NCBI GenBank assembly: GCA_021735655.1
Contig: JAIPGM010000005.1
Coordinates: 1 to 64,000 of the forward strand
From: Candidatus Omnitrophota bacterium
Lineage (GTDB): Bacteria; Omnitrophota; Gorgyraeia; Duberdicusellales; 4484-171
Reading direction: 5' to 3'
Length of the DNA: 64,000 nt
The position numbers were made by a program, and so were the translations under genes. The notes under the pieces are model-generated. The model was not told where the DNA came from, made no database searches, and worked only from the letters and a program-made list of their open reading frames with translations. Positions 1,678 to 25,848 of the stretch are shown here, in pieces (position 1 is the first letter of the stretch; each line of letters begins with the position of its first letter).

Positions 1678-2795
1678 AAATACTTTTCTAAAATAATTTT
1701 TACTCTTTCAGCGATAGCCAAGCAAGCGGTTAAGCCGGGAGATTCAATGCCAATCAAGTTAATAAAACCCGGTAGGCCTTTTTGGCTTTCTTCAGAAATC
1801 ACAAAATCCCTGAAAGCTTCATCCTCCTTCTGCAATTTAGCCCTTACCCCAACTGTATCCGGTATTAAATCTTCAAGTTCTAAAGACGGTAAGATTTTTT
1901 TTACTGAATTGTAAAAATTGACCTTGTCAGTTTCATCGATATTGTAGTCAATTTCTGAAATATACTTTGCATCCGGACCCAAGCGTAATCCGCCGACTAG
2001 ATCCGGAGTAACATGAATACCTAAGTCTATCTTTGTTGCCGGTGGGTAAACTAAATGCTTTATTGAAAACTTCTCAGGCTTCTTAATTCTAAAGTATTGC
2101 CCTTTACAGTAGCTAAGTTTGTAGTTTTCAGCTTGAATATTAATTCCTGCCATTTCTGCTATTTTATCAGAACAAAGACCAGCAGCATTAACTACTATTT
2201 TACTTTCAAAGGAAAAAGACTCTCCGTTAGGCTCTTTTACCATAACTTTATAGCCAGAACTCTGCTTATCAATTCCAACAACTTCAGTCAAAAAAGAAAA
2301 AGTTACCCCTTGTTGCTTAGCTCGATTATAAAGAAAATTCATTAAACCATGAGAATCTATTATTCCAGAGTTAGGAGAAAAAAGGACTTTTTTGGCTCGA
2401 ACTTGTGGCTCTAAGCGACATAATTCGGCTGGATCTAAAAAGTTTAAATTCTTAACTCCACTATTTAAAGCATTGTCATAAATTGCTTCTATTTTTTGAA
2501 CTTCATCTTGGTTGCAAGCAACAACTAACTTTCCTAAACGCTTAAAAGAGATGCCTTGTTCTAGGCATAACTGATACAAAAGCTTGTTGCCTTGAATGCA
2601 GGTTTGAGCTTTTAACGATCCTGACCGGTAATAGAGGCCGGAATGGATTACTTCGGAATTTCGTGAGCTTGACTCCTGTCCGAAAGAATCATTCTTTTCG
2701 ATAGCAACAATATTTTGGTTAAACTTAGAAAGCTGAGAAGCTATGCTTAGGCCAACGACCCCGGCTCCAATTATGGTAATATCATTCTGCTGCAT
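1674..2795 (-). CDS. FAD-dependent oxidoreductase, L-2-hydroxyglutarate oxidase/dehydrogenase (LhgO)-like.
   Basis: N-terminal GAGVVG dinucleotide-binding motif. Family-level similarity to the LhgO / glycerol-3-P dehydrogenase-like flavoprotein fold. Its stop is convergent with and overlaps the stop of the fused GS. Confidence 0.7.
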   Translation of the reverse strand: MQQNDITIIGAGVVGLSIASQLSKFNQNIVAIEKNDSFGQESSSRNSEVIHSGLYYRSGSLKAQTCIQGNKLLYQLCLEQGISFKRLGKLVVACNQDEVQKIEAIYDNALNSGVKNLNFLDPAELCRLEPQVRAKKVLFSPNSGIIDSHGLMNFLYNRAKQQGVTFSFLTEVVGIDKQSSGYKVMVKEPNGESFSFESKIVVNAAGLCSDKIAEMAGINIQAENYKLSYCKGQYFRIKKPEKFSIKHLVYPPATKIDLGIHVTPDLVGGLRLGPDAKYISEIDYNIDETDKVNFYNSVKKILPSLELEDLIPDTVGVRAKLQKEDEAFRDFVISEESQKGLPGFINLIGIESPGLTACLAIAERVKIILEKYF

Positions 2796-2837: not shown

Positions 2838-4436
2838 TTACCGCTTGAGCAAGGCAGCCTTAATGAAATCCCTAAATAAAGGGTGAGCAGAGTCAGGTTT
2901 AGATTTAAATTCAGGATGGAACTGGCAAGCTACAAACCAAGGATGGTTTTTTAATTCAATTATCTCAACTAAATTCTTTTGAGGATTAATCCCTGAAAAA
3001 ATCATACCTGCCTTTTCCATTAAATCTCTATATTTATTATTAAACTCATAACGATGTCGATGGCGTTCAGAAATTTTTTCTTTCTTATAGGCCTTGTAAA
3101 CTGTCTCTTTTTTCTTCAAGCAACAATCGTAAGCACCCAAACGCATCGTTGCCCCCTTGTCGCTTAGCATCTTTTGATTTTCAAGTATTGAAATAACCGG
3201 ATATTTAGTATTTTTATTAAACTCTGAAGAATTTGCATTTTTCAGTCCACAAACATTACGCGCAAATTCAATTGCTGCCGTCTGCATCCCTAAACATATG
3301 CCTAAAAAAGGAATTTTATTTTCCCGGGCGAATTTAACTGCTTTGATCTTTCCTTCGATGCCACGGTTACCAAAACCACCCGGGATTAAAATTCCTTTAA
3401 CTTCTTTTAAATATTTCAAAGCATCTTTCTTTTCAATATCTTCAGAGTCAACTTTCTTTATCGAAAGTTTTACGTTATTCTCAATTGCCCCATGGACTAA
3501 GGCCTCATAAATTGACTTATAGGCATCCTGGAGGGCTATATATTTTCCAACAACTGCAATTTCAACCTTTTTTGTCGGAGATTTAACTCTCTTAAGCATC
3601 TTAATCCAATCGGTCAAGTTATCTTCTGGACATTTTAGATTAAGTAACCTAATAATTAACCTGTCTAGTCCCTCCTTCTTGAAAGCAACCGGAACCTCAT
3701 AAATACTTTTTACATCAATAGCAGTAACCACCGCCTCCTTATCGACATTACAAAAAAGAGAAATTTTTTCCCGTGCCTCTTTATTGAGATTTCTTTCGGT
3801 TCTGCAAACAATAATATCGGGAATAATTCCTATCTCACGAAGTTTACCAACACTATGTTGGGTCGGTTTAGTTTTAATCTCTCCGGCCGACTTTATATAA
3901 GGAACTAATGTTACATGGATGTTAATTGCATAGTCGCGACCTAAATCAAGTCGCAGCTGTCTAATTGCCTCCAGGAAAGGGAGTCCCTCGATATCCCCTA
4001 CAGTCCCTCCGATTTCAACAATTACAACATCAACCTGCTGTTTGGTGGCAACTTTGATAATACCTTTTTTTATCTCATCGGTTATGTGAGGAATAATCTG
4101 AACAGTTTTTCCTAAATAATCACCGTGTCTCTCTTTGGAAATAACCGAGTAATATATTTTTCCAGTAGTAATATTATTATCTTTGGTTAACTTAGAATTA
4201 GTAAAACGTTCATAGTGTCCTAGATCTAAATCAGTCTCTGCTCCGTCGTCGGTAACGTAAACCTCTCCGTGTTGAAAAGGATTCATGGTCCCCGGATCAA
4301 CATTAATATAAGGATCACACTTGATAATTGTGACTTTAAGCCCCCGGGATTCAAGAAGCTTGCCAATTGCAGCCGCAGCAATCCCCTTGCCTAAACTCGA
4401 TACGACACCACCGGTAATAAAAATATATTTTGCCAT
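2838..4436 (-). CDS. pyrG: CTP synthase.
   Basis: N-terminus [18 protein letters not shown]...[13 protein letters not shown] and C-terminal GATase domain (GICLGMQ, HPEF) are canonical PyrG. Confidence 0.95.
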
Positions 4437-5812
4437 TACCTCCTCCTTTCTAAAGATCGTTTAGAAAACTTTTTAGGAATTTTTGTCGGATATTTACCAC
4501 TAAAACAAGCTGCGCAAAACTTATCTTTCTCCAAAGGCATAGATTTTAACATACCCTCAAGGCTTAGATACTCCAAACTGTCTAAACCGATAAATTTTTT
4601 AACCTCTTCAATCGTACGACTCGAAGCTATTAACTCTTTCTTTGTCGGAAAGTCTATCCCATAAAAACAAGGTGATATGATTGGCGGGCAACTTACCCGC
4701 ATGTGGATTTCTTTAGCCCCGAACTCCCGTAAAGTTCTCACTCGACTCTTGGAAGTTGTTCCTCGAACAATTGAATCCTCAATAACTACTATTCTTTTAC
4801 CTTTCAAAACATCTCTAATCGGATTAAGCTTCACTCTAACTCTAAAATCTCTAATATATTGAGACGGTTGAATGAAAGTTCGTCCAATGTAATGATTACG
4901 AATCATGCCAACCTCCAAGGGTATACCGCTTTCTTCAGCATAACCCATAGCTGCATAGTTTCCCGAATCAGGAACCGGCATCACTATATCAGCGTCTACC
5001 GAGCATTCTTGGGCAAGTTGTCTACCTAACTGTTTACGCGCTAGATAAACGTTGTTGCCAAAAATATTGCTATCCGGCCTGGCAAAATAAATATATTCAA
5101 AAATACATGACGCTTGATTGCTTTTAGCAAATGGCTTTACCGACTCCAAACTATCTTTTTTTATAAATACTACCTCACCCGGGGCAACATCTCTAACATA
5201 AGTAGCACCAATTAAATCTAAAGCACATGTTTCGCTAGCTAACACATAAACTCCATCAAGTTTTCCTAAGCAGAGTGGACGAAATCCCTGAGGATCTCTT
5301 GCTCCAACTAAAACATCATCCACCATTAATGTTAACGAATAGGCCCCAGCAAGTTTAGAAAGAACTTCAATAACTTTATCTTTAGTACTTTTATTGGACG
5401 ATTTAGCTAAAAGATGGACAATCACCTCTGAATCCATGGTGCTTTGGAAAATAGAACCCTTCTCTTCTAACTCCTTGCGCAAAACTGAAGTATTGGTGAG
5501 ATTCCCATTATGAGCAATAGCTATGTGGCCTTTTTTATGATTAACCAAGAAAGGTTGAATATTTTTAGAAATGCTTGATCCGGTCGTTGAATAACGGACA
5601 TGTCCGACAGCTACATCTCCCCGCAGAGCTTTTATTGCTCGTTCATCAAAAACATCACCAACCAAACCCATAGCCTTATGATATCTGACTCGCCGTCCGT
5701 CATAAGTAACCACCCCGCAGCTTTCTTCGCCACGATGCTGAAGTGCATACAATCCTAAATAAGCCAAACGCGAAGCATCTTTATGTCCAATAACACCAAA
5801 TATTCCACACAT
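4436..5812 (-). CDS. purF: Amidophosphoribosyltransferase.
   Basis: MCGIFGV N-terminal nucleophile Cys and PRTase domain. One-nucleotide overlap with pyrG. Confidence 0.95.
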
Positions 5813-5833
5813 TTTATTATTTCACTCCTTTTG

Positions 5834-8800
5834 TCAGCTAATATATTCCTGTATTGATTTAACTCCTAATTCACCCTTTAGCGCCGACTCTATACCATTA
5901 ACTGCTGCCTGGGCACCCTGAATCGTAGTGATACAAGGAATTCCATACATTACTGCCATGCTCCTTATCGATTTCATATCTGACTGACCTCTTTGGCCAG
6001 AAGGTGTATTTATTATTAATTTTATTTCGCCGCTCTTAATTAAATCCAATAATTGGCCATCGCCTTCGCTAATTTTTCCAACCTCTTTGGCTAAGATATC
6101 GTTGGAACGAAAAACTTTACAAGTGCCCCTGGTTGCCAATATTTTAAACTTCATATCCTTTAGCTTCTTAGCTATAAAAACAATACTTCTTTTATCGTCA
6201 TTTTTAACACTTATAAATATTTTTCCTTCTAACGGCAAAGCTTGACCAGCTGCTACCTGTGACTTATAAAAAGAAGCTCCGAAAGAACTATCTATACCCA
6301 TAACCTCACCGGTTGACTTCATTTCAGGGCCCAGGAGTATGTCTACTCCGGAAAACCTTGAGAATGGCAAAACCGACTCTTTTACCCCACAATGGAAAAT
6401 TTCCTTCTCCTGAGTAAAACCAATTTCATTCAATGTCTGACCAACCATAACCCTAGCAGCAATCTTAGCTAAGGCTACTCCAGTAACTTTACTCACGAAA
6501 GGTATTGTTCTTGAAGCCCGCGGATTTACTTCCAAAACATAAACGATATCGCCTTTTACGGCAAACTGGATATTAATTAACCCACAAACTTTCAATTCCT
6601 TTGCTAAAAGATGTGTATGTTTTCTTATTGTCCCTATAATTTCATCACTCAACGTGTGTGGCGGAATAACACAGGCTGAATCTCCAGAATGAACACCAGC
6701 CTCCTCAATATGCTCCATAATGCCACCGATAACCGTATCTTTTCCATCAGAAACAGCATCCACATCTACCTCCACTGCATCTTCCAAAAATTTATCAATC
6801 AATATCGGGCGGCCTCCCGAAATATTAACTGCCCCTTTGACAAATTGATCTAAAGATTTTTCATCATAAACTATCTTCATTGATCTTCCACCTAATACAT
6901 AAGAAGGTCTAACTAAAATTGGATAACCGATTTCTTTAGCTATCTTTCGGGCAGATTCTTTTGAAATAGCTGATCCGTTTGGTGGTTGGTTAAGGCCCAA
7001 ATCTTTTATTAATTCCGAAAACTTATCTCTATCCTCGGCTCGGTCAATAGAAGATACTGCTGTACCAATAATTGGCGCACCAGCCGCCTCCAATTTTTTA
7101 GCTAGATTAAGCGGAGTCTGACCGCCCAATTGCACTATTACCCCTTGAGGCTTCTCCTTTTCGATAATATTCATTACATCCTCAAAGGTCAATGGCTCAA
7201 AATAAAGCTTATCCGATGTATCGTAATCGGTTGAAACTGTCTCAGGATTCGAATTAACCATAATTGTTTCAAATCCAGCCTCCCTAAGCGCAAACGCAGC
7301 ATGACAACAGCAATAATCAAATTCTATGCCTTGCCCAATACGATTAGGCCCACCACCCAAAATCATTATTTTTTTGTTCTGAGAAACTCTAGTCTCATCT
7401 TCAGTCTCATAAGTAGAATAATAATATGGTGTATAGGCCTCGAACTCGGCCGCACAGGTATCAACCAACTTAAAAGTAGCGGTAACGCCTTTTTCTTTTC
7501 GTAACTTATTTATCGATAACTCATCCGACCCAATCAAATCAGCTATCTGGCGATCACTAAATCCGTACTGCTTGACCTTCTTTAAAAAAACAGCATTTAG
7601 ATCTTTATTGCTTTTAATTTCTTCCTCAAGCTCAACAATCTGCTTTATGTTATCGATAAACCAAAGGTCTATACCCGTCTGTTCAACAATATCATCCAAC
7701 TGCCAGCCTTTCTGAATAGCGTACTTAATATAAAATATTCTTGAGGCATTTGGCTCTTTTAACCTTAAGCTGATTTTCTCATCGGAAACTTCTTTATAAT
7801 CTGACTTGTTGTCCAGCCCGGTATGGCCAATCTCTAATCCTCGCAAACCTTTTTGAAGGGCTTCCTTAAAAGTTCGACCAATAGCCATAGTTTCTCCGAC
7901 TGACTTCATTGATATCCCCAAAATATCCTTTGCCTCGGGAAACTTTTCAAAAGTAAAACGGGGAATTTTAACTACACAGTAATCTATCACCGGCTCAAAT
8001 GAAGCCGGGGTTTCTTTAGTAATATCGTTTTTAATTTCATCCAGGGTATAGCCCACCGCTAGCTTAGCAGCAAACTTTGCTATCGGAAAACCAGTAGCCT
8101 TACTCGCTAGAGCTGAACTGCGTGAAACTCTCGGGTTCATCTCAATAACTACCATTCTTCCATCTTTAGGGTTGACCGCAAATTGAATATTTGAACCGCC
8201 GGTTTCAACGCCGATGGCTCGAATTATATCAATAGAGGCATCGCGCATTTTTTGATATTCTTTATCAGTTAAGGTTTGAGTCGGAGCCACAGTAATTGAG
8301 TCCCCGGTATGAATGCCCATCGGGTCAAAATTCTCTATCGAACAAACTATAACTACATTATCTTTTTTATCACGCATAACTTCTAATTCATACTCTTTCC
8401 AACCAACGATAGACTCCTCAATAAGGATTTCACTAATCATACTGTTATTTAAGCCTAAAGCGGCTATTTCTTCAAATTGTTTTTGGGTGGTAGCGATGCC
8501 TCCTCCAGTTCCACCAAGAGTAAAGCTGGGCCTAATTATCACTGGCAAGCCTATGGCTTTAACCGCTTCTTTTGCTTCTTTGATGTTGTAAGCTAAGGCA
8601 CTCTTAGGTAAATCCAGCCCAATCTCCTGCATTGTTTTTTTAAAAATTTCCCTGTCTTCAGCCTTTTTTATAGCTTCGCAATCGGCACCAATCATCTTAA
8701 CTCCATACCTGTCTAAAATTCCCTGTTCGAAAACCTTCATCGCCGTATTTAGCCCGGTTTGACCACCTAAGGTAGGTAATAATGCATCCGGAGACTCTTT

Positions 8801-9037
8801 CTTGATGATTTTTTCGACTATCTCGGGAGTTATCGGTTCAATATAGGTTGCATCAGCCATTTGTGGATCAGTCATGATCGTGGCTGGATTAGAGTTAAGA
8901 AGAACCACCTTAAAACCTTCTTCTTTTAAAGCCTTGCAAGCTTGAGCCCCAGAATAGTCAAACTCGCAAGCTTGACCAATTATTATTGGCCCAGAACCAA
9001 TGATTAAAATTTTTTTAATATCCTCTCTTTTAGGCAT
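5834..9037 (-). CDS. carB: Carbamoyl-phosphate synthase large subunit.
   Basis: 1067 aa with duplicated ATP-grasp halves and an MGS-like C-terminus; canonical CarB motifs. Confidence 0.95.
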
Positions 9038-10109
9038 AACTCTTTATCATTGAAATGAATTCATCGAATAAATATTCAGCATCATGCGGACCGGGCGAAC
9101 TTTCAGGATGAAATTGAACTGAAAATAACGGCAAGCTTTTGTGACGCAACCCTTCAAGGGTATTATCATTAAGGTTAACCTGCGTTACTTCTATTGATTC
9201 GCAATCTAAAGAATTAATGTCAACGCAAAACCCATGATTTTGTGCCGTTATTGAAACTTTACCGGTTTTTAAATCCTTAACTGGATGATTTCCACCATGA
9301 TGACCAAATTTAAGTTTGTAGGTTCTGCCACCCAAAGCCTGACCAAGTATCTGATGCCCAAAACAAATTCCAAAAAGCGGAACTTTACCGATCAGCCCCT
9401 TTACTGTATCAACAAGATAAGTAACGGCCGAAGGGTCTCCCGGACCATTAGAAAGTAACACTCCGTCAGGTTTAATTTTAAAAATTTCGTCTAAAGCGAT
9501 ACTTGCCGGCACAACCGTTACCTTGCAATTCCTCTCACTTAATTTCCTTAAGCTGTTCAGTTTTAAACCGCAGTCAATAACAACTATCTTAAATTTTCCC
9601 TTATCACTCCAAACCCAAGGCTCCTTACAGGTAACCTCTTTTACCAAATCAATACCGATTAACCCTTTTGATTCTCTAGCCCGCTTAACTAAAATTTGGT
9701 CACTACAATTTTCAGTTGAAATCACCGCTTTCATCGCTCCCTTAAGTCTTATTTGTCGCGTAAGGGCTCTAGTATCAAAACCTTCAATGCCAATTACATC
9801 ATTCTCAGTCAAATAATCCGGAAGGCTCTGGGTAGCACGCCAATTACTATAAACCCTGCTGCATTCGCGCACTAAAAACCCTTCCAAAAATGGCTTCTTT
9901 GATTCAACATCACCAGGATTAATTCCATAATTACCAATTAAAGGATAAGTCATTAAAACAATTTGCCCTTTATAGGAAGGATCGGTAATTATCTCCTGAT
10001 AACCACTTAAGCTGGTATTGAAAACTACTTCACCACTCCTTTCCCCCGAACCAGAGAAGCAATCTCCTTGGAAAATAATTCCATTTTCAAGAGCTATTCG
10101 AGCTTTCAC
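9030..10109 (-). CDS. carA: Carbamoyl-phosphate synthase small (glutaminase) subunit.
   Basis: CPSase_sm N-domain plus GATase1 (GICFGHQ, HPE). Eight-nucleotide overlap with carB. Confidence 0.95.
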
Positions 10110-12694
10110 GACGACGTCTCCTTTTTACTAAAAAAACATATAACCCTTTGCGAAGTAACATCGGAGATTATCCTCAAATCTTCGCTGCTTAGGTCATAGA
10201 CACTAATAATATCTTTATACTTAGCAGAACCAGGTACTAATTTAGCGAGCAAATTATCATGCTCAATCAACCAAGACTTATTAAATATAACTCCCTTATT
10301 TTCAGGAAAAAGAGCAATATAAAATATGCTAGTTTCGACTAAATCCTGAAAGAAATGGGTTCCAAAAGATAATTCCGGCATAAGGTTTCCAGCTGAAAAT
10401 GCAACCTCAGCTAAGACTGCTATATTATTTATCTCGGCAAATTTTACTGGAACGCCCAAGGATGGAGTTGTTGTGCCCCATCTTCCCGGTCCGATAAGAA
10501 GAGTATAGAACTGCTCCCGATCAGTCAGATTCCGATTGAGCCGCCCGACAACCCGAGCGATTTCATACTTATCTGATAAAACTAATTTATTGTAACCTTC
10601 CGGATCAATATAGATAATTCTTTCTACTTTATGAGAAATATTTCCGCCGAAAAAATACCCTTGAGACTCAAAAAATATATCAGTTTTAAGTATTTTCTTA
10701 GGCATCCTGACCCTTTTACCGATACCAACTGTTTGTAATGGTCTACACTGTAATACATTTATTTTAAATAAATCATCCTCAGTAAAATTAACGGTAAATT
10801 CTAATTCTACTGGATAATTATAACTTTTCTCAAGTAATTCCAGTATCTTCTTAAAAGAATTGGCTAATTTACTCTTGCTAAAAGCCTTATCTAAAGTTAA
10901 TATCCAGTAATCCTTATCTTTTAAATTTCTACCGCGCATCATTTCTGTAGCTTCATAATCTTTAACCGCCATGCGGTTTAAATCGTTATAAATATTACTA
11001 CGAGCCAAATCATTAAATGAAATGGTTTCAAAACTATTATTTTTTGTATTTATAACATCGACCTCGTGCTGTGAGAATTTTCGCAAATCGTCTTTTTCGG
11101 CATACGGCCTTCGCAAAGGATCATCTAAAGCAACCATCCTCGGATAATCACCTTCAACCCGATTAACCGCTCTAGTGCCCAGCCCAAAAACTACCCTAAG
11201 CATTCCCGCTTTAGGGTCAATATCTTTATTCCAAACATGGGTATTGTGTGAAACTCCAACCCCAGCTAGATCAGGGAAAAAACAACAATCATGATGGGCT
11301 CCAGAAACTCGTTGTATTAAAAGCGCCATCTGCTCATCCAACTTGTCCAAACCACGCTGCTTCCGGTAGACTAAAGCATCCTCGCTCATGGTGCTGGCAT
11401 AAATTTTTCTTACTGCCTCGGCAAACATAAGATATCTTTGCTCGGGGCTGCCCTGGTTAGCCAAAAATATACTCTCATACTTACCAGCAAAAGCATTACC
11501 AAATCCGTCCTCAAGCAATGAACTTGACCGTATGATAATCGGTGAAGAGCCAAAATATTCAATAATTTGTTGAAAATGTTCTCTGATCTCCTCAGAAAAA
11601 GTTCCATAAAGCATCTTATCTTTAAGAATCTTCGCAATCGAAAAATAACCTTCTTCGCCTCTTTGCTGCATACGTAATTTCCACCAGCGGTTTTGCACAA
11701 TATAAGAATAAAATATATCTGAACCAATATAAAACGAATCGTGTGGTTCTGAAAGTTTAGGCCAATCCGGCAATTTTTCCGAAAGCATCTTACGGGCCAA
11801 AAGCATACCAGCGCTTTTACCACCGATAAAACCAGTTCCAATTAAGCGAGATTTTATATCAATTAACTCAGCCAGTGATAAATTATTCACTGCCAACGAC
11901 ATAATTTTTTCATTTTTGCTTATCATCAAGCTACAAATTTTCTTAACAATATCGGATATTTTTTCCTTAGCCGGCCGGACCTTAATTAGTTCGTCAGCTT
12001 CAAGAAATAAACGATCCCAATAATCAAGATTTCGCTTTGCGCTTTCAAGGCCCTTTTCGCTAATATGAGAAAGTATTTCTACCGCATTAATGCTGTCGGC
12101 AATTGGTGTCCAGCGATCATCTTCTCTTTGATGCGGAAGAAACATTGTCGGTGTATACCGATTCCAAACTTTCAACGGATGGATATAAAAACTTCCCCGA
12201 CAGCGATAGACATCCATAAGCAGTTGTGTGGTTTCTCGTATTTGAGCTATCGACTTAAAAGAATGACTATTACGTAATATCGAAAAATAAGTTAAAGTTT
12301 TAAGTTCGTAAAGATAAGGACAAGTTACCATAAAAAAATTACCAATCATTAAATCACTGGCCCAAGCCGAGAGCAACTCTGAAAGGCAATCAAAAACATA
12401 ATAAGCGCCCTGGCCTTCTTTAGTAATAATTTGATTTAATTCGGTAGCAAACGACTCAAAACCAATCGAAGGTTTAAGATCATATCGCTTTATCTTAGCT
12501 GAAGATTCTAGTAACTCTTTATGTGAAGCAAAACGGATATAGATAACCTTCTTATCCTCAAGCAAAGCCTGATCAACAAAAGGCTTAACCAGCTCAACGT
12601 AGTCTTCTATATCATCAATTTGCCAAACAACATTGTCACCAGCTCGTAACCCGGTAATTACTTTATCCAAACCTTTTATTCCCGTACTTATCAT
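10106..12694 (-). CDS. Large protein of unknown function: degenerate KaiC/RecA-like N-domain plus a PEP-synthase/PPDK_N-type ATP-grasp domain.
   Basis: 862 aa. The N-terminus GIKGLDKVITGLRAGDNVVWQID resembles KaiC/RecA domain starts but has no Walker A motif. The central region has PpsA/PPDK_N signatures (IIRSSSLLEDGFGNAFAGKYESI; ...FKINVLQCRPLQ). The C-terminus has GPGRWGTTTP, a swivel-like stretch without the catalytic His. ATGA overlap with carA and an 11-nt gap after gltD place it in the same operon. Confidence 0.55.
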   Translation of the reverse strand: MISTGIKGLDKVITGLRAGDNVVWQIDDIEDYVELVKPFVDQALLEDKKVIYIRFASHKELLESSAKIKRYDLKPSIGFESFATELNQIITKEGQGAYYVFDCLSELLSAWASDLMIGNFFMVTCPYLYELKTLTYFSILRNSHSFKSIAQIRETTQLLMDVYRCRGSFYIHPLKVWNRYTPTMFLPHQREDDRWTPIADSINAVEILSHISEKGLESAKRNLDYWDRLFLEADELIKVRPAKEKISDIVKKICSLMISKNEKIMSLAVNNLSLAELIDIKSRLIGTGFIGGKSAGMLLARKMLSEKLPDWPKLSEPHDSFYIGSDIFYSYIVQNRWWKLRMQQRGEEGYFSIAKILKDKMLYGTFSEEIREHFQQIIEYFGSSPIIIRSSSLLEDGFGNAFAGKYESIFLANQGSPEQRYLMFAEAVRKIYASTMSEDALVYRKQRGLDKLDEQMALLIQRVSGAHHDCCFFPDLAGVGVSHNTHVWNKDIDPKAGMLRVVFGLGTRAVNRVEGDYPRMVALDDPLRRPYAEKDDLRKFSQHEVDVINTKNNSFETISFNDLARSNIYNDLNRMAVKDYEATEMMRGRNLKDKDYWILTLDKAFSKSKLANSFKKILELLEKSYNYPVELEFTVNFTEDDLFKINVLQCRPLQTVGIGKRVRMPKKILKTDIFFESQGYFFGGNISHKVERIIYIDPEGYNKLVLSDKYEIARVVGRLNRNLTDREQFYTLLIGPGRWGTTTPSLGVPVKFAEINNIAVLAEVAFSAGNLMPELSFGTHFFQDLVETSIFYIALFPENKGVIFNKSWLIEHDNLLAKLVPGSAKYKDIISVYDLSSEDLRIISDVTSQRVICFFSKKETSS

Positions 12695-12705: not shown

Positions 12706-14151
12706 CTAAGTAACCGATAAGTTACTTTCTCCGATTAAATACTTATCAATATAATGAGCACAACGCCTGCCTTCAGAAATAGCCCAAACAACCAGTGACT
12801 GGCCACGTCGCATATCTCCGGCCGAAAAAACTTTATCAACCGATGTCATATATTTATTATCGGTTTTTACATTTCCCTGCTTGTCAAGTTTAACTTTAAG
12901 ATCGCTAAGTAAGCCAGCATGTTCCGGATGTAAAAACCCTATAGCCAAAATAACTATATCAACCTCAATCTCAAAATCACTCCCGAGAATATCTTGCATA
13001 ACCGGGCAACTCTTGCCATCAGCTGCAACAAATTCTACCCTTTTACAGCAAATTTTCTTTAAGCGACCACCCTTGCCAACAAATTGCTTTGTCAAAACAG
13101 CCCATTGACGTTGACCACCCTCCTGATGACTTGAGGTCGTCTTTAAAAGTAAAGGATAATTCGGCCAAGGATAATCTTTACTACGGCACCGTAAAGGCTT
13201 CGGCATGACTTCTATCTGGACAACCCTAGCTGCCGACTGACGATGAGCAGTCCCTAAACAATCAGCCCCGGTATCGCCTCCGCCGATAACAACAACTCTT
13301 TTACCAGAGACATCAATAATTTGATCCTCTGGAATACTCTCACCGGAAAGCCTTCTGTTGACTTGGGTTAAATAGTCCATAGCGTAATAAATACCCTTAA
13401 GTTCCCTGCCCTTTATTTTAAGATCTCTTGGAACGCGTGAGCCTCCGGCTAAACAAATAGCATCAAATTCAGTTGTCAGTTTTTCAACCGAATAATCTCT
13501 TCCTACATCAACACCGGTCTTAAAAACAACCCCTTCCTCTTTCCAAATATTGATACGCCGATCGATTATAGACTTTTCAAGTTTAAAATCAGGTATACCA
13601 TAACGAAGAATTCCTCCCGGTTGATTGTCGCGCTCAAAAATAACTACCCTGTGTCCGGCCCGGTTTAGTTGAGTTGCCACAGTTAAACCAGCTGGGCCTG
13701 AACCAACAACCGCTACTTTTTTGCCAGTCCGCTCGCCTACAGTGATCGGTTTAATTATCCCGGCTCTAAAACCAAATTCACTAACAGCCAGCTCATTTTC
13801 AGCAATAGTAACAGCATCACTATTCAAAGCTAACACGCAAGCATGCTCGCAAATAGCCGGACAAATTCTACCAGTTATTTCTGGAAGATTGTTGGTCGCT
13901 TCTAATAACTTAACTGCTTCTTCCCAATTGCCCTTAAACATATAATCATTCCACTCCGGGATATAGTTTCCTATCGGACAGGCCCAATGACAAAAAGGCG
14001 TACCACAATCCATGCAACGTGATGCCTGCTCCTGCGACTGCTCATCGGGTCGCAGATAGCGAACTTCTTTAAAATCCTGAATTCGCTCATCGACCTGACG
14101 ATACTTACCCTCTTTTCTTGATGCCTTCAGAAAACCTCTTAAATCACCCAT
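12706..14151 (-). CDS. gltD: Glutamate synthase (NADPH) small subunit.
   Basis: Cys cluster CMDCGTPFC...CP and the VAVVGSGPAGL FAD/NAD motif. Start taken at the ATG (MGDLRG) preceded by GGAG. An alternative TTG start at 14172 is possible. Overlaps the gltB stop. Confidence 0.9.
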   Translation of the reverse strand: MGDLRGFLKASRKEGKYRQVDERIQDFKEVRYLRPDEQSQEQASRCMDCGTPFCHWACPIGNYIPEWNDYMFKGNWEEAVKLLEATNNLPEITGRICPAICEHACVLALNSDAVTIAENELAVSEFGFRAGIIKPITVGERTGKKVAVVGSGPAGLTVATQLNRAGHRVVIFERDNQPGGILRYGIPDFKLEKSIIDRRINIWKEEGVVFKTGVDVGRDYSVEKLTTEFDAICLAGGSRVPRDLKIKGRELKGIYYAMDYLTQVNRRLSGESIPEDQIIDVSGKRVVVIGGGDTGADCLGTAHRQSAARVVQIEVMPKPLRCRSKDYPWPNYPLLLKTTSSHQEGGQRQWAVLTKQFVGKGGRLKKICCKRVEFVAADGKSCPVMQDILGSDFEIEVDIVILAIGFLHPEHAGLLSDLKVKLDKQGNVKTDNKYMTSVDKVFSAGDMRRGQSLVVWAISEGRRCAHYIDKYLIGESNLSVT

Positions 14152-17100
14152 CGTATGTCTCCGACAAACCAAGTTTTTCCTCTATCTGTGCTTCCTCTAA
14201 TATGCGCTTATACTCTATCGGTATAACCCGGATAAATTTTTTGAGTTCTTCATTCATGCTATCGATAACCCTTTTTGCTCTTTTGCTTCCGGTATATTTG
14301 AAATGGTTATCAAGTAAATTATACAATACATCTTTGTCCTTCTCCTTGATCTCTTGAAGTTCAACCATATCTAAATTACATTTATTTCTAAAGGTCTTAT
14401 CTTGATCATAAATATAAGCTATTCCGCCACTCATACCAGCAGCAAAATTTCTGCCGGTTTTGCCTAAAACAATTACTCGACCACCAGTCATATATTCACA
14501 ACCGTGATCGCCAAGACCTTCAACAACTGCATACAACCCGGAGTTTCTTATGCAAAACCTCTCACCAGCTACACCACAAATATAAGCCTCACCGGAAATT
14601 GCTCCATAAAAACTAGTATTGCCGATAATTATATTCTCAGTCGGTTCAAAATCAGCTCTTTTATCCGAATATACTATTATTTTTCCACCGGATATACCTT
14701 TTCCGATATAATCATTAGCCATCCCCTCTAATTCAAAAGTAATGCCCTTAGCTAGAAATGCACCAAAACTTTGTCCGGCTGCACCCTTAAACTTACAATT
14801 AATTGTGTCCTCTAAGAGCACTCCATCACCGCATCTGCGTGAAAGTTCACCGCTCAACATTGCACCGGTAGCCCGATTGGTATTATTAATATCCATAACT
14901 ATATTTACCGGCCTATTTTTCTTAAAAGCAACTTCACTCATCTTTATTAGCTTACTATCTAAAACCGAACCTAAATCTTTAGCCTGTTTAGACTTTCGAT
15001 ATGGTTTGATATTTTGATTAGAGCAATCCGGACGATAAAGAATTCTTGATAAATCCAATCCTTTTGCTTTTTCCGGAACAATCGCCCTATCCATTTCAAG
15101 CAAATCAGTACGTCCAATCATCTCATTAATAGTTCTTATTCCTAAACTTGCCATAATCTGACGGAGTTCTTTTACGACAAAATGAAAATAATTTACTATA
15201 TATTCCGGACGGCCCCTAAACCGTTTCTGCAAAATATCATCCTGGGTAGCTACCCCGACTGAACAATTATTTAAGTGGCAATGCCTGAGCATAACACAAC
15301 CACTGATAATCAAGACAGCCGTACAAAAACCATATTCTTCGGCTCCCAATAAGGCAGCTATTGCAACATCGCGACCAGTGCGTATTTGTCCATCGGTCTG
15401 TATGCGAACTCTCGAACGTAGCTTGTTAAGTATCAAAGTCTGATGTGTTTCAGAAAGGCCCAACTCCCAAGGAAGCCCAGCATAACGTATTGAACTCATT
15501 GGCGAGGCACCAGTACCGCCATCACCCCCTGAAATAAGTATCATGTCAGCGTGACCCTTAGCTACCCCGGCAGCAACCGTGCCCACGCCTAGCTCCGAAA
15601 CAAGCTTCACACTCACCCGGGCATTAGGGTTGGCATTTTTTAGATCAAAAATTAACTGGGCTAAGTCTTCAATTGAATAAATATCATGATGTGGTGGCGG
15701 TGATATTAAAGTTACTCCCGGAGTAGTAAACCTAGTCCTAGCAATTGATTCACTGACTTTATGTCCCGGAAGTTGACCGCCTTCTCCTGGCTTTGCGCCT
15801 TGGGCAATTTTTATCTGTATTTCATCAGCATTAACTAAATAATTTATAGTTACCCCAAAGCGGCCAGAAGCAACCTGTTTTATGGCACTTCTTCTGGAAT
15901 CACCGTTAGGTAAAGTTATAAATCTAGATGGATCCTCTCCGCCCTCACCAGTATTAGACTTTCCACCTATTCTATTCATAGCAATAGCAATAGTTTCATG
16001 AGCCAATCTACTTATTGAGCCAAAACTCATGGCACCGGTAGCAAAACGTTTCATGATATCCTTAGCTAGCTCAACCTTATCAATCGGAATTTCCTTTTGC
16101 TTCTTAAACTTAAACAAACTCCTCAAAGTCGTTGGATTAGCTGACTGATCGTTTATAACCTGAGCAAATTCGCAATAACGATCATAATCATTATTAGTTG
16201 CAGCGTCCTGTAAAGTTGCTATACTTTTTGGATTCCAAAGATGAAACTCGCCGTCTTTTTTCCACTGGTAAATTCCACCACTAGCCAAGTAAGGTTTCTC
16301 AATCACTCTCCTAGGATAAGCCTCTTTATGTCTTTCGATGGTTTCGTTAGCAACCCCTAATAGGCTAACTCCGCCAATCCGAGATGCTGTACCAGTAAAA
16401 TATTTGTCAATAAAATCGGAAGCTAAACCCAAAGCTTCAAATATCTGAGCGCCCCGATAACTTCTCAAGGTAGATATCCCCATCTTTGAAAGTATCTTTA
16501 AGATACCGTCAGTTAAAGCTTTTCGGTAATTAGTTAAGGCTTTTTGATAATCAAGAAAAATTTCTTTTTTATCGATCAGATAACCAATAGCTCCATAAGC
16601 AAGGTAAGGATTTATACAATCAGCCCCATAGCCAATAAGTAGGGCAAAATGGTGTACTTCCCGAGGCTCAGCACTTTCAACAACTATCGCCACCTGTGAA
16701 CGAATAGTCTTTTCTACCAAATGCTGGTGGACAGCGCTTACCGCTAAAAGAATCGGAAGAGCAATATTATCTTTATTAACTCCCCGATCGCTGAGAATAA
16801 CAAAAGAATATCCTTGTTCAATGGCATATTCTGTTTCAAAACAAATTCGCTCTAGAGCTCGGACAAAACCTTCTTGACCACTGGCAGCATCAAAAAACGT
16901 ATATACTGTTTTGGCTTTAAATCCATTTATACTGATATCACGTAAATTCTGAAACTCTTGATCATTCAATATTGGATTTTTAACTCTAAGCTTATGACTA
17001 TGCCCCGGAGTTTCCTCAAGAATATTCTTCTCCGGGCCGACATAGCTCTCCAAACTCATAACTAACTTCTCTCTAATTGAATCTATGGCCGGATTAGTAA

Positions 17101-18676
17101 CTTGAGCAAAAAGCTGCTTAAAATAACTATAAAGCAGTTGGGGTTTGGCCGATAAAAAAGCATGCGGAGTATCATTACCCATTGAGCTAACCGGTTCTTT
17201 CCCACTTTCAGCCATAGGCTTTATAATTAACCTAAGGTCTTCACGTGAATAGCCAAAAGCTTTTAAACTGTAGATTATTTCTTCATATTCCTCTCGGTTA
17301 CAATCACCAATAGCCAATTCATCAAAATTAACCATGCCTGCATCGTTCCATTGTTTGTAAGGAAAACGAGAAGCTACCCGTCGCTTAATTTCCGAATCAT
17401 CTACTATTGAGCCGGATTCAGTATCAATAAAAAATATCTTTCCCGGCTCGAGCCGTCCAGAAAGCTTGATTTCTGCTGGATCTATATCTAAAACACCAAC
17501 TTCCGATGCCATTACCACGAATCCATTCTTGGTTATTATGTACCGAGCTGGTCTGAGACCATTTCGATCAAGAGCGGCTGCTATGTTTTTTCCATCAGTA
17601 AAAGCTACAGCGGCCGGGCCATCCCAAGGCTCCATAAAACAAGCATGATACTTATAGAAATGTTTTAGCTCCGAGCTCATTGATTTGTCGTCTTCCCAGG
17701 CTGCTGGGATTAACATCATCATCGCATGCTCGATAGATCTTCCCGACAAAACCAAGAGCTCCAAAATGTTATCGAGCGCAGCTGAATCACTTCCACCCTT
17801 AACGATAACTGGTTTCAACTTATCAATATCGCTACCAAATGATTGACTAACCAACAACCTTTCCCTGGCGCTTACCCAATTTATATTGCCACGTAAAGTG
17901 TTTATTTCGCCATTGTGGGCTAAAAAACGGAAAGGTTGGGCTAAATCCCAAGTAGGAAAAGTATTTGTACTATAACGTGAATGGACTAAACAAAGTGAAC
18001 TTTCTAAGGAGCTATCCTTTAAATCAACAAAAAAATCACGTAGTTGCGAAGGCATTAGCAAACCTTTATAGCTTAAAGTCCGAGACGACAGGTTAGTTAT
18101 ATAAAAAAAAGATTTCTGCTTTAATCCGGCTACGCTAATTGCATTTTCGATTTGTTTACGAATAACATAAAGTTTTCGTTCAAAACCAAGCTGATCATCT
18201 AATTCCCCGCTTCTACCAATAAAAGCCTGAGATATAAATGGCATGCTACGCCTAGCACCTTTGCCAATCACTGAAACTTCAACCGGAACGTCACGCCAAC
18301 CTAAAAACTCTTGGCCTTCCTGTTTAATCTTTTTTTCGAATATACCGCGGCAAATGTCTCGTTCGTTCTTATCGGTCGGTAAAAATACTAAGCCAGTACC
18401 ATAGAAATTTGCCTTTGGCAAATTAATTCCGCTAGCTTTACATTTTTCAAACAAAAACTTATGTGGTATCTGAATAAGCATACCGGCGCCATCCCCGGTA
18501 TTAGGATCTGAACCAACAGCTCCACGATGACTTAAGCGCTCAAGAACCTCAATGCCCTTATCAATAAGAGCATAAGATTTCTTGCCGTTTATATTACAAA
18601 CAAACCCTACACCACAGCTATCATGCTCAAACTGCGAATCATATAAACCCTGGGTTTTAGGAAAATTGGAAAACAT
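14144..18676 (-). CDS. gltB: Glutamate synthase large subunit.
   Basis: 1510 aa. Ntn amidotransferase Cys (DSCGVGF), FMN/Fe-S central domain and the GXGXG C-terminal domain. Confidence 0.95.
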   Translation of the reverse strand: MFSNFPKTQGLYDSQFEHDSCGVGFVCNINGKKSYALIDKGIEVLERLSHRGAVGSDPNTGDGAGMLIQIPHKFLFEKCKASGINLPKANFYGTGLVFLPTDKNERDICRGIFEKKIKQEGQEFLGWRDVPVEVSVIGKGARRSMPFISQAFIGRSGELDDQLGFERKLYVIRKQIENAISVAGLKQKSFFYITNLSSRTLSYKGLLMPSQLRDFFVDLKDSSLESSLCLVHSRYSTNTFPTWDLAQPFRFLAHNGEINTLRGNINWVSARERLLVSQSFGSDIDKLKPVIVKGGSDSAALDNILELLVLSGRSIEHAMMMLIPAAWEDDKSMSSELKHFYKYHACFMEPWDGPAAVAFTDGKNIAAALDRNGLRPARYIITKNGFVVMASEVGVLDIDPAEIKLSGRLEPGKIFFIDTESGSIVDDSEIKRRVASRFPYKQWNDAGMVNFDELAIGDCNREEYEEIIYSLKAFGYSREDLRLIIKPMAESGKEPVSSMGNDTPHAFLSAKPQLLYSYFKQLFAQVTNPAIDSIREKLVMSLESYVGPEKNILEETPGHSHKLRVKNPILNDQEFQNLRDISINGFKAKTVYTFFDAASGQEGFVRALERICFETEYAIEQGYSFVILSDRGVNKDNIALPILLAVSAVHQHLVEKTIRSQVAIVVESAEPREVHHFALLIGYGADCINPYLAYGAIGYLIDKKEIFLDYQKALTNYRKALTDGILKILSKMGISTLRSYRGAQIFEALGLASDFIDKYFTGTASRIGGVSLLGVANETIERHKEAYPRRVIEKPYLASGGIYQWKKDGEFHLWNPKSIATLQDAATNNDYDRYCEFAQVINDQSANPTTLRSLFKFKKQKEIPIDKVELAKDIMKRFATGAMSFGSISRLAHETIAIAMNRIGGKSNTGEGGEDPSRFITLPNGDSRRSAIKQVASGRFGVTINYLVNADEIQIKIAQGAKPGEGGQLPGHKVSESIARTRFTTPGVTLISPPPHHDIYSIEDLAQLIFDLKNANPNARVSVKLVSELGVGTVAAGVAKGHADMILISGGDGGTGASPMSSIRYAGLPWELGLSETHQTLILNKLRSRVRIQTDGQIRTGRDVAIAALLGAEEYGFCTAVLIISGCVMLRHCHLNNCSVGVATQDDILQKRFRGRPEYIVNYFHFVVKELRQIMASLGIRTINEMIGRTDLLEMDRAIVPEKAKGLDLSRILYRPDCSNQNIKPYRKSKQAKDLGSVLDSKLIKMSEVAFKKNRPVNIVMDINNTNRATGAMLSGELSRRCGDGVLLEDTINCKFKGAAGQSFGAFLAKGITFELEGMANDYIGKGISGGKIIVYSDKRADFEPTENIIIGNTSFYGAISGEAYICGVAGERFCIRNSGLYAVVEGLGDHGCEYMTGGRVIVLGKTGRNFAAGMSGGIAYIYDQDKTFRNKCNLDMVELQEIKEKDKDVLYNLLDNHFKYTGSKRAKRVIDSMNEELKKFIRVIPIEYKRILEEAQIEEKLGLSETYDG

Positions 18677-18961: not shown

Positions 18962-19690
18962 TTAGACAACCAAATTTGCTTTTCTTTCAGAAATAATACG
19001 GGAAAAATTTAAGTAAAGCATCTTTGCCTGATAAATATATTTTTCCTGACAATTAAAATAATCAAACAATAATTTAGTCCTATCAATATCGGCAGAGTAA
19101 TGTTGACACCAACCTTTTAACATCTCAAGATTCATCTCCGGATGAAACTGTACCCCCCAAGCACAAGGGGAAAAACGCACCGCCTGATTTCTGCAAGCTC
19201 TTCCCTCAGCTAAAAGTTTAGCTTCCTTCGGTAATTCAAAGGTATCTTCATGCCATTGGAACACATCAAGCCTTTCGTCTAAACCCCTAAATAATCTGTC
19301 GGCTTGAGCCTCCTCTGTTAAAGAAACTTTAGACCAACCAATTTCCTTATTTTCACACCTTGTAACCTTAGCTCCTAGGGCTTTAGCGATAAGTTGTGCT
19401 CCCAAACATATCCCGAGAACCGGAATTTCCTCCCTAATCAGATACCTTAAAAACTCCTCTTCAACTTCAAGAAAAGGAAACTCCCTCTTCTGGTAGACAT
19501 TCATCGGCCCGCCAAAAACAACCACTCCTTCAATCTGAGAAATATTTTTAATTAGCGAGCCATCTTTAAACTCAAGAAATTGTTTAGGCTGACTTATATC
19601 CAAAATGCGAGTATCCCACTTAGTGCTTTCCAGGAACTTTCCAAAAGTCCCTGGACCTTCCAAACCTAAATGCTGTATAAAAATAATCAT
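18962..19690 (-). CDS. Class I glutamine amidotransferase (GATase1-like, GMP-synthase/PuuD-like).
   Basis: 242 aa with catalytic triad context GICLGAQL ... FHPE. Five-nucleotide gap after glnA. Confidence 0.8.
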   Translation of the reverse strand: MIIFIQHLGLEGPGTFGKFLESTKWDTRILDISQPKQFLEFKDGSLIKNISQIEGVVVFGGPMNVYQKREFPFLEVEEEFLRYLIREEIPVLGICLGAQLIAKALGAKVTRCENKEIGWSKVSLTEEAQADRLFRGLDERLDVFQWHEDTFELPKEAKLLAEGRACRNQAVRFSPCAWGVQFHPEMNLEMLKGWCQHYSADIDRTKLLFDYFNCQEKYIYQAKMLYLNFSRIISERKANLVV

Positions 19691-19695
19691 TCTTT

Positions 19696-21027
19696 TTACA
19701 AAATTGAAAGATACTTATCCAATTCATATTGAGGAACTTGGATTTTATAATTATCCCACTCCTTCTTCTTTAACTCCACAAACCTGGGAAAAATATGTTC
19801 ACCGAGCACCTTTTTAACCAATTCACTCTCTTCGGTTATTGAAACTGCATGTCCCAAGCTATCCGGAAGAGTCTCAATGCCTTGATCTTTTCGCTCGGAA
19901 TCGCTAAGATGATACAAATTTTTCTCCATCGGATTAGGCACCTTATAGCCTTTTTCAATGCCTTCAAGCCCGGCATGAAGCATTGCTGCAAAGGTAAGAT
20001 AAGGGTTACATGCTGGATCGGCAGCCCGAAATTCACAACGAGTAGCCTTTTCTTGACCAGGATGGTACAAAGGAACTCTAACCAAGGCGCTTCGATTCCT
20101 ACGACTCCAAGCAATATAAACCGGAGCCTCATAACCAGGAACCAACCGCTTGTAAGAATTAGTAGTTTGAGCAAATATTGAACAAATTTCCTTGGAATGC
20201 TTAAGAAGTCCGGCTATATAGCTGTGACCAACCCCAGAAAGAAAATCTTCAGCCTTAGGATCAAAAAAGGCGTTCTTTTCGCCTTTAAACAGTGATTGAT
20301 GAACATGCATACCAGAACCATTTTCGCCAAATAAGGGTTTAGGCATAAAAGTAGCGTAAACTCCGAATTTGCTAGCGATTTCTTTTACTACCACTCGATA
20401 AGTTATTACATCATCAGCCATCTTTAATGCATCTTGATAACGCATGTCTACTTCATGTTGAGACGGTGCTACTTCATGATGTGAATACTCAACATGAATT
20501 CCCATTTTCTCTAAAGCCAACACTGTTTCTCTTCGTAGATCACTAGCAACATCAAGAGTGGTTAGATCAAAATAACCCCCTTTATCCAAAGTTTCAGTAT
20601 TATTTTCGCTTTTGAAATAAAAGAACTCTAGTTCGGGACCTAGATAGAAATGGTCAAATCCCATTTTTTTAGCCCGCTCCAAGGCTCTTTTTAAAACATA
20701 GCGCGGATCGCCAACATATGGCGTACGATCAGGATTAAGCACGTCACAAATCATTCGAGCAACTGCCTTTTCCCTCGGCCGCCAAGGCAATATTGCAAAA
20801 GTTTCCGGATCAGGCATAGCAATCATATCTGATTCTTCAATGTCCTGATAACCGGTAATCGAAGAGCCATCAAAACCCATACCATTTTCTAAAGCTCCCT
20901 CTAATTCATTATCGGTTATCGAAAAACTCTTTACCTGCCCTAGAATATCAGTAAACCATAAACGAATAAACTTAACATCATTCTCCTTAACCAGTTTTAA
21001 AATATCCTGCTTTGTTTTCTTAGCCAT
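19696..21027 (-). CDS. glnA: Glutamine synthetase type I (I-alpha-like, 443 aa).
   Basis: Canonical GS-I motifs (DGSS, KPLFGENGSGMHVHQSL, NPYLTFAAML). RBS cggagg before the ATG. Confidence 0.95.
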   Translation of the reverse strand: MAKKTKQDILKLVKENDVKFIRLWFTDILGQVKSFSITDNELEGALENGMGFDGSSITGYQDIEESDMIAMPDPETFAILPWRPREKAVARMICDVLNPDRTPYVGDPRYVLKRALERAKKMGFDHFYLGPELEFFYFKSENNTETLDKGGYFDLTTLDVASDLRRETVLALEKMGIHVEYSHHEVAPSQHEVDMRYQDALKMADDVITYRVVVKEIASKFGVYATFMPKPLFGENGSGMHVHQSLFKGEKNAFFDPKAEDFLSGVGHSYIAGLLKHSKEICSIFAQTTNSYKRLVPGYEAPVYIAWSRRNRSALVRVPLYHPGQEKATRCEFRAADPACNPYLTFAAMLHAGLEGIEKGYKVPNPMEKNLYHLSDSERKDQGIETLPDSLGHAVSITEESELVKKVLGEHIFPRFVELKKKEWDNYKIQVPQYELDKYLSIL

Positions 21028-21052
21028 CTTACACCTCCGTTTTGTTTATGCT

Positions 21053-21098
21053 CCTAAAAATAAAAATGGTGTCTTAAGCCCTAAGGCTTTAAAACACC
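21053..21098 (-). terminator. Intrinsic-terminator-like hairpin plus U-run between glnB and glnA, ending ~25 nt before the glnA start codon.
   Basis: Minus strand: GGUGUUUUAAAGCCUUAGGGCUUAAGACACC followed by AUUUUUAUUUUU, then RBS GGAGG and ATG. Two further hairpins sit upstream (21119-21133, 21140-21155). Confidence 0.55.
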
Positions 21099-21228
21099 AT
21101 TGTTTTGAAAGCTTTTTTGCACAAACTTTGTGCTTTTTTGGCTGAAATTTCAGCCCTCAATATATATAAGTAAAAAAATGGGTCTTTTGGTAACCTTTTT
21201 TTTAAAATTTTTTCCTGGCCCATAAAAT

Positions 21229-21570: not shown

Positions 21571-21584
21571 GGTTTACCTCCCTG

Positions 21585-22931: not shown

Positions 22932-22982
22932 CTACGTCCCCCCTTTTTTATTCGTACCGAATGGAACTTATTTTGTTTTTAT

Positions 22983-24329: not shown

Positions 24330-24344
24330 AAGGATACCTCTCTC

Positions 24345-25136: not shown

Positions 25137-25149
25137 AATTTTCTCCCTT

Positions 25150-25200: not shown

Positions 25201-25245
25201 TTTGTGTTTTTACTTAACCTCTACAATCAATTAAGTAAAAAAACT

Positions 25246-25758: not shown

Positions 25759-25777
25759 AAACTTTACCCCTGAAAGT

Positions 25778-25818: not shown

Positions 25819-25848
25819 TCTTTGCCAAAATTAACTTCTTTGTTATTA

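Follow-up and report, generated by a model that had tools for sequence, protein, structure and literature searches.

We analyzed a 64,000-nucleotide stretch of DNA from a Candidatus Omnitrophota bacterium (contig JAIPGM010000005.1, positions 1 to 64,000; the whole stretch is hereafter the window), centering on one minus-strand gene, here called X, that sits between a glutamate synthase gene and a carbamoyl-phosphate synthetase gene. Judged from its sequence, X belongs with the dikinase-type ATP-grasp enzymes, among which its architecture and its biological setting are new. We favor the reading, at a probability of roughly 0.45, that it would be an ATP-driven, dikinase-like phosphotransfer enzyme at the node leading from 2-oxoglutarate to glutamate, acting there as a regulator. 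A preliminary description of the window had placed an 862-amino acid (aa) open reading frame (ORF) at 10106–12694 between gltD and carA, which translation and the Pfam assignments of the neighbors bear out: the gene is a genuine ORF of 862 codons with an ATG start, and its product is 100% identical to protein P0001 of a Candidatus Omnitrophica metagenome-assembled genome. The gene, its domains and their motifs are as follows.

10106–12694, minus strand: gene X, encoding an 862-aa three-domain protein (ORF and translation), named 'PEP/pyruvate-binding domain-containing protein' in databases
12104–12694, minus strand: predicted KaiC/RecA-fold core (aa 1–197), a pseudo-ATPase
12599–12640, minus strand: degenerate Walker A position GDNVVWQIDDIEDY (aa 19–32), where KaiC-type proteins have GxxGxGK[ST] (sequence, model and consensus)
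12380–12403, minus strand: Walker-B-like strand YYVFDCLS (aa 98–105) with D102 and S105 invariant (invariant columns in two alignments; strand 98–103 in the model)
11840–12103, minus strand: helical linker (aa 198–285) from the RecA-like core to the ATP-grasp (helices 201–281 in the AlphaFold2 model)
10724–11839, minus strand: PPDK_N-type ATP-grasp nucleotide-binding domain (aa 286–657)
11816–11824, minus strand: nucleotide-binding motif GGK293, invariant (alignment)
11507–11530, minus strand: RSSSLLED (aa 389–396), invariant, aligning with RSSATAED of PpsA (alignment and hhalign)
10739–10801, minus strand: E632 and Q649-C-R-P652, invariant, aligning with DIEW and QARP of PpsA (alignment and hhalign)
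10109–10723, minus strand: family-specific C-terminal domain (C-domain; aa 658–862, 205 aa), the constant companion of the X-type ATP-grasp
10475–10492, minus strand: invariant GPGRWG loop (aa 735–740; alignments), next to a low-pLDDT loop (742–747)
10343–10369, minus strand: invariant SFGTHFFQD (aa 776–784; alignments), with helix 780–788 following a low-pLDDT loop (768–779)

The sole Pfam family found in X is PF01326 (PPDK_N; residues 289–662, E = 2.2e-44), with no family for the first ~285 or the last ~205 residues. The ATP-grasp aligned with that of Escherichia coli PpsA at an hhalign probability of 96.6%, with GGK293, R389-SSSLLED396, E632 and Q649-x-RP652 all matched to PpsA motifs, and every nucleotide-site motif was invariant across more than eight phyla. 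The PPDK_N-type grasp proposed in the preliminary description is thus present with its motifs intact. Structural matches of X include rifampin phosphotransferase (RPH) and HpeI.

Some database records name relatives of X 'phosphoenolpyruvate synthase' or 'pyruvate, water dikinase', and we therefore considered whether X is a genuine PEP synthase (PEPS) or PPDK, or else a fusion of two genes created by assembly or annotation. Neither of these, both raised as possible outcomes in the preliminary description, deserves more than the slightest credence. All three defining domains (PPDK_N, PEP-utilizers and PEP-utilizers_C) were detected in an E. coli PpsA control, whereas the latter two are missing from X: PF02896, the PEP-utilizers_C TIM barrel, had no match in X, which has only 205 residues after the grasp, and PF00391, the PEP-utilizers mobile domain, had none in X or 46 homologues at E ≤ 1. 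Equivalog models scored 15–57 bits against cutoffs of 456–1063, the best NCBIfam score for X being 57.4 bits against a cutoff of 883, with 36 against 740 for TIGR01418. No genuine PEPS or PPDK gene occurs in the 64-kb window. The fusion is rejected by the full-length architecture, which runs without frame breaks through 64 loci of many phyla. Since no PEP/pyruvate-binding domain can be detected in X-type proteins, which are not PEP synthases, the names 'PEP/pyruvate-binding domain-containing protein' and 'phosphoenolpyruvate synthase' are misleading for the family.

What X shares with PpsA and PPDK is a homologous N-terminal-type ATP-grasp (PF01326, with GGK, RSSxxxED, E and QxRP) and a domain directly after it, in the position of the phosphohistidine carrier; it differs in having neither a detectable GGxTSH mobile domain nor a PEP/pyruvate-binding TIM barrel and in adding a KaiC-like domain at its N terminus. 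RPH, unlike X, has a canonical C-terminal His swivel domain and a rifampin-binding domain, and its model NF041857 gave X 24.5 bits against a cutoff of 999. Phenylphosphate synthase, AcvAB and HpeHI, split aryl dikinases related to RPH, are small-molecule dikinases, as are the acetovanillone and hydroxyacetophenone dikinases generally; both RPH and the split aryl dikinases differ from X in domain order, the extra module of X being N-terminal.

The N-terminal domain has the alpha/beta fold of RecA-like proteins in structure models, which were built from shallow alignments (43 and 17 sequences). A strand at 21–26 is followed by a helix at 29–45, and DDIEDY replaces the P-loop between them. No GK[ST] of a Walker A motif occurs at the P-loop position in the consensus of 46 X homologues; instead, G19, D20 and N21 are invariant at the degenerate site. 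With DDIEDY in place of the P-loop and GK[ST] missing from all homologues, the domain cannot be a conventional ATPase, and the catalytically dead KaiC-like domain of the preliminary description is confirmed in these respects. Polar residues are nevertheless strictly kept, with D20, N21, D102, H172, K175, R179 and H188 invariant and R54, H58 and R141 nearly so, and those at the former nucleotide site would form a binding pocket or an interface. Pfam matches of the domain are weak and point to RecA derivatives that lack a P-loop (PAXNEB/Elp4, PF05625, in 14 of 46 members; MEDS, PF14417, in 8 of 46), none of them at the Pfam gathering score. X shares the fold of KaiC-type ATPases and not their P-loop. 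From the KaiC family and its pseudo-ATPase derivatives (Elp4/5/6, MEDS and the BcsE N-terminal domain) it differs in having no KaiC autokinase motifs and in being fused to a dikinase ATP-grasp.

Searches with the C-domain revealed no relative in Pfam or PDB profiles, and hhalign against the mobile domains of PpsA and EI gave a probability of 0.2%. A canonical PEP-utilizers mobile domain is ruled out by these three results (46 members in the case of Pfam). Any fold resemblance to the phosphohistidine swivel domain is marginal; the profile alignment to PpsA continues beyond the grasp and takes in the first hairpin of the C-domain, which may be a much-diverged swivel, or phospho-carrier, domain. 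Its SFGTHFFQD motif is retained in 95 of 109 diverse representatives and includes His780, the only invariant His of the domain. In the predicted model this residue stands at a helix start behind a low-confidence, flexible loop, as does the catalytic His of PPDK, and it is the leading candidate for a phospho-acceptor. The GPGRWG and SFGTHFFQD loops are presumably mobile.

The family is large and widely distributed. A word-indexed homologue search returned at least 8000 clusters, an exhaustive search of representatives at 50% identity gave 821 clusters at E ≤ 1e-30, and a scan of one genome per species detected full-length homologues in at least 593 species. Carriers include Omnitrophota, Planctomycetota, Syntrophorhabdus, Syntrophales, Desulfobacteraceae, Spirochaetota, Syntrophomonas, Nitrospira, Acidobacteriota, Elusimicrobia and Burkholderiales, and among cultured organisms Pelotomaculum propionicicum (WP_134213514.1) and several Marinobacter species, with Marinobacter lacisalsi (WP_379887705.1) as an example. 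The ATP-grasp and C-domain form a constant pair, while the N-terminal module is exchanged between subfamilies. The X-type architecture (~860 aa) combines the KaiC-like domain with this pair; proteins of ~770 aa have an unrelated N-terminal region of ~190 aa, and relatives of 920–1080 aa have one of ~330 aa, sometimes with an added C-terminal nucleotidyltransferase domain, neither region having a Pfam match. A tandem form of ~1480 aa in relatives from Geobacter reads [ATP-grasp + C-domain][KaiC-like + ATP-grasp + C-domain]. A constant core with a variable N-terminal module fits a catalytic pair served by exchangeable specificity or sensor modules. No branch of the family reaches any NCBIfam cutoff, a ~780-aa sister group staying below that of PRK05849. 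Our literature search found no publication on the family or on a KaiC-like/dikinase-ATP-grasp combination, no curated model, and no omics or genetics for any member.

Individual members of the sister subfamilies carry a C-terminal Pol-beta-type NTP_transf_2 domain after the grasp and C-domain core, or foreign N-terminal regions (P0354, P0357 and P0297). Tandem relatives are found in L081 (8001–12419; Geobacter sp. OR-1), L082 and L083. The contexts of the sister subfamilies and double-length forms are heterogeneous and give no shared clue to the chemistry.

To describe the setting of X, we clustered the ORFs within 6 kb of it in 80 genome loci, the best of at least 593, counting loci without regard to kinship. 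The commonest neighbor was gdhA, for NADP-glutamate dehydrogenase (GDH), at 29 of 80 loci (746 bits against a cutoff of 536), followed by gltD (19), gltB (15), pyrG (9), carA (9), amt (8) and carB (7); PII also occurred, and two additional clusters were pieces of a split, archaeal-type glutamate synthase (GOGAT). Regulators were equally part of the picture, with a NifA-type sigma-54 activator at 9 loci (above the TIGR01817 cutoff) and NrpR at 9 (PF01995, 254 bits). Overall, a nitrogen-assimilation gene lay within 6 kb of X at 56 of the 69 loci having at least 4 kb of flank, and within 400 nt at 52 of 76. The density of such genes was 5.1 per 10 kb within 1 kb of X and dropped to ~0.9 at 5–10 kb.

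The arrangements themselves differ between lineages. Omnitrophota have gltB-gltD-X followed by carA or pyrG, whereas Planctomycetota have either glnK, amt and a porin-like gene divergent from nifA-like-X, or gdhA-X. In Syntrophorhabdus and relatives (Syntrophia/Desulfobacterota), X is followed by a convergent nrpR-gdhA pair; Syntrophomonas has carA-carB-glnK-amt-X and Nitrospira glnA-X; in Marinobacter the end of gdhA and the start of X are 2 nt apart; and in Pelotomaculum X is convergent with glnA-gltB-gltD. Such variation means that the association of X with nitrogen genes is not one inherited operon. The gltD-X-carA order, whose conservation the preliminary description left to be checked, recurs in some Omnitrophota while others have gltD-X-pyrG, so the exact order is limited to a subset of that phylum. 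Likewise, its 'glutamine-consuming operon' is apt for carAB-purF-pyrG in the window but not across phyla, where the partners are GDH or GOGAT together with NrpR, the NifA-like activator and amt-glnK. The common denominator is the formation of glutamate from 2-oxoglutarate and ammonium rather than the use of glutamine.

Because X is joined to gdhA or gltBD, NrpR, the NifA-like activator and amt-glnK in many unrelated phyla, its target would most likely lie at this glutamate-forming step, and X is probably an ATP-driven component so far missing from the picture of nitrogen assimilation. In the mechanism we favor, the KaiC-like domain, having lost its P-loop, would most likely serve as a ligand- or target-binding module, possibly as an oligomerization module. 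The ATP-grasp would split ATP and move a phosphoryl group onto the C-domain, where His780 is the foremost candidate for the acceptor, and the C-domain, placed where the phosphohistidine swivel domain would be, would hand it to a target held by the N-terminal domain. That target could be an enzyme, a regulator or a metabolite of the node. A constant grasp and C-domain with a swapped N-terminal module is what one would expect if a catalytic pair were combined with a specificity module. We favor a regulatory role, that is, an ATP-dependent modification or control of GDH and GOGAT or of their regulators, because one phylum has X transcribed together with a NifA-like activator and another has it beside NrpR, and because a variable sensor on a constant core is a layout typical of signaling proteins. 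The preliminary description had suggested a phosphotransferase of unknown substrate or a regulatory kinase; the intact grasp agrees with this, but no canonical phosphohistidine domain is detectable, and phosphotransfer is inferred, as are the acceptor residue, the kind of target and the role as a regulator.

A more specific version would make the X family a set of unrecognized post-translational nitrogen regulators: a phosphorelay enzyme guided by its KaiC-like domain, acting on GDH and GOGAT or on NrpR, the NifA-like activator or PII, switching cells between GDH and glutamine synthetase (GS)-GOGAT, and using a new phospho-carrier in place of the GGxTSH swivel domain. We consider this full form unlikely. 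Its PII branch was looked at directly. The operon PII of the window (21229–21570, minus strand) has a T-loop reading ...TYRGVIHEV..., with Val and His at the positions of Ser49 and Tyr51 (E. coli GlnB numbering). Near X in other loci, between L002 and L070, PII lacks the Tyr in 14 of 15 cases (L012 has it) and the Ser in all, so the classical uridylylation and phosphorylation sites are absent from these proteins, except for the Tyr of L012.

Several observations weigh against the favored reading. PII as a target of X through its T-loop finds no support, since Tyr51 and Ser49 are missing and no conserved residue takes their place. The analysis brought up no target of X, and gene context cannot tell a regulator from a metabolic enzyme. 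NrpR operators showed no enrichment upstream of X, with 2 operator-like sites where 0.95 would be expected, and sigma-54 promoters gave 0 sites there, both being weak tests because X is often internal to an operon. On the structural side, a greedy hhalign alignment, of very low confidence, pairs GPGRWG with GGRTCH of PpsA, so that the catalytic PpsA His falls in a gap and not opposite His780, and the models share the limits of their shallow alignments. Finally, 13 of the 69 loci have no nitrogen genes near X, as is true of the divergent members P0402 and P0231 (41% and 48% identity). The tandem relatives instead have carbohydrate genes nearby: L081 has PGI and an alpha-amylase-family protein of 1149 aa, and L082 has PFK.

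These last exceptions, together with a sister-subfamily member that adjoins STAS/RsbW-type genes, are what would be expected if the nitrogen neighborhood were chance operon packing and X had an unrelated role, for example in carbohydrate or general stress signaling. We regard this as highly improbable. The association recurs in at least seven lineages, in varied orders and orientations, and peaks at the immediate neighbor, and such recurrence cannot be explained by inheritance of one ancestral operon.

The main rival to a regulatory role would make X a small-molecule dikinase with a function in metabolism or detoxification, which would phosphorylate a metabolite of the glutamate/2-oxoglutarate node, or an antimetabolite, held by the RecA-like domain. 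To our knowledge, the characterized PPDK_N enzymes other than PEPS, PPDK and the glucan dikinases act on small hydroxylated molecules. The structural matches to RPH and HpeI point the same way, and a variable module on a constant core resembles RPH with its inserted substrate-binding domain. Translational coupling of X to enzymes suggests enzyme-like expression, and an anionic ligand would be compatible with the many Arg, His and Asp residues kept invariant where the nucleotide once bound. However, this node is not known to have a pathway gap that an AMP-forming phosphorylation would fill, and the neighbor clusters include no recurrent downstream enzyme for a phosphorylated product. Regulators (NrpR, the NifA-like activator co-transcribed with X, and amt-glnK) also neighbor X as often as enzymes do. 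On balance a small-molecule dikinase is rather unlikely.

Alternatively, X might transfer no phosphoryl group at all and act as a sensor or scaffold, with the grasp reading ATP and AMP, the N-terminal domain binding a nitrogen metabolite, and GDH and GOGAT or the NifA-like activator and NrpR controlled by contact, in the style of NifL and NifA. The nifA-like-X operon divergent from amt-glnK in Planctomycetota would suit this, as would the resemblance of the N-terminal domain to MEDS, a predicted sensory domain, and the lack of a recognizable phosphohistidine motif. Yet the invariance of all dikinase grasp motifs over more than eight phyla is unusual for a mere binding module and makes a purely sensory X less likely, and the invariance of the two C-domain loops also favors a chemical role over one in binding only. 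We consider a non-transferring X improbable.

Ammonium assimilation by GDH and GS-GOGAT is among the best-studied regulatory problems, with knowledge drawn mostly from a few model phyla. In Omnitrophota, Planctomycetota, Syntrophia/Desulfobacterota, Firmicutes, Nitrospirota, Acidobacteriota, Spirochaetota and even the aerobic Marinobacter, X is an immediate neighbor of gdhA or gltBD. If X does control the glutamate-forming enzymes, it would add a new component at a central control point of carbon and nitrogen metabolism and a new dikinase architecture, in which a pseudo-KaiC module and an ATP-grasp are joined to a novel carrier-like domain; should the phosphorelay reading also be true, X would bear on switching between GDH and GS-GOGAT in many, mostly anaerobic, phyla. 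Precedents of a functional kind exist. AceK, GlnE/GlnD, PknG-GarA and EI-Ntr (PtsP) use ATP or PEP to drive modifications that govern the flux around 2-oxoglutarate, glutamate and glutamine; AceK, a regulatory kinase, has its gene within the operon of the pathway it controls, and EI-Ntr pairs a sensory domain with PEP-utilizer phosphotransfer chemistry. They are analogues only, with no homology to X detected, the likeness being to the role proposed for X from gene context. The cultured members in Marinobacter and Pelotomaculum make that role directly testable.

In the window, X belongs to a long same-strand string of genes, which Pfam and NCBIfam resolve in the order nfnAB-like, gdhA, LuxR-type HTH, an unassigned ORF, amt, amt, PII (glnB-type), glnA, class-I glutamine amidotransferase (GATase), gltB, gltD, X, carA, carB, purF, pyrG and a DAO-family oxidase. 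The groups flanking X are the following.

12706–18676, minus strand: gltB (14144–18676) and gltD (12706–14172), glutamate synthase, directly upstream of X (Pfam)
2838–10109, minus strand: carA, carB, purF and pyrG, directly downstream of X, with carA overlapping the X stop (Pfam and junction sequence)
18962–27213, minus strand: upstream nitrogen genes, comprising gdhA (25885–27213), LuxR-type HTH, two amt genes, PII, glnA and class-I GATase (Pfam/NCBIfam)

The packing around X is as tight as the preliminary description held. The gltD stop TAG (12706–12708) is separated from the ATG of X by an 11-nt gap, and the X stop TGA (10106–10108) overlaps the carA start GTG (10107–10109), which has an AAGGAG Shine-Dalgarno sequence 8 nt upstream. 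Both the gap and the stop/start overlap were therefore correctly described, except that the overlap reads GTGA and not ATGA. A scan of the operon for consensus promoters and terminators gave the same counts as shuffled sequence and was uninformative beyond the tight spacing.

Several neighbors deserve mention in their own right. The gdhA gene is preceded by a gltD/NfnB-like gene (Fer4_20 and Pyr_redox_2) and an NfnA-like gene (DHODB Fe-S and NAD_binding_1), the group spanning 25885–29547 on the minus strand, and this nfnAB-like pair suggests that NADPH is supplied specifically to GDH; near X in L012–L014 and L066, a gltD-like-gdhA pair recurs. Directly upstream of the amt genes lies a 263-aa ORF with no Pfam match (24345–25136, minus strand), and at the equivalent place beside amt a porin-like protein with a weak Gcw_chp match occurs in Planctomycetota and Syntrophaceae (L016, L017, L021, L037 and L051). 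A stand-alone class-I glutamine amidotransferase of 242 aa (18962–19690, minus strand) begins 5 nt past the end of glnA, upstream of gltB; its best NCBIfam matches are PRK07053-type 'glutamine amidotransferase' models, all below cutoff, and it has no obvious synthase partner. Near X in other loci, carB appears to be split or present as two adjacent carB-like genes (L004, L007, L009 and L078 of Omnitrophota; L022 and L024).

The last gene of the string (1674–2795, minus strand) encodes a DAO-family flavoprotein that matches L-2-hydroxyglutarate oxidase and type 2 glycerol-3-phosphate oxidase best, in both cases below cutoff; an operon centered on 2-oxoglutarate would be a fitting place for an enzyme of 2-hydroxyglutarate repair. 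Divergent from the string is a gene (142–1677, plus strand) for a 511-aa glutamine synthetase (Gln-synt_N and Gln-synt_C; TIGR00653, 505 bits) with an N-terminal DNA-binding domain of the HTH_17/excisionase type, an unusual fusion that could be a GS-derived transcription regulator. A glutamine-hydrolyzing asparagine synthase (57338–59278, minus strand) lies ~45 kb from X, and elsewhere the window contains genes for type IV pili and for several sensor histidine kinases.

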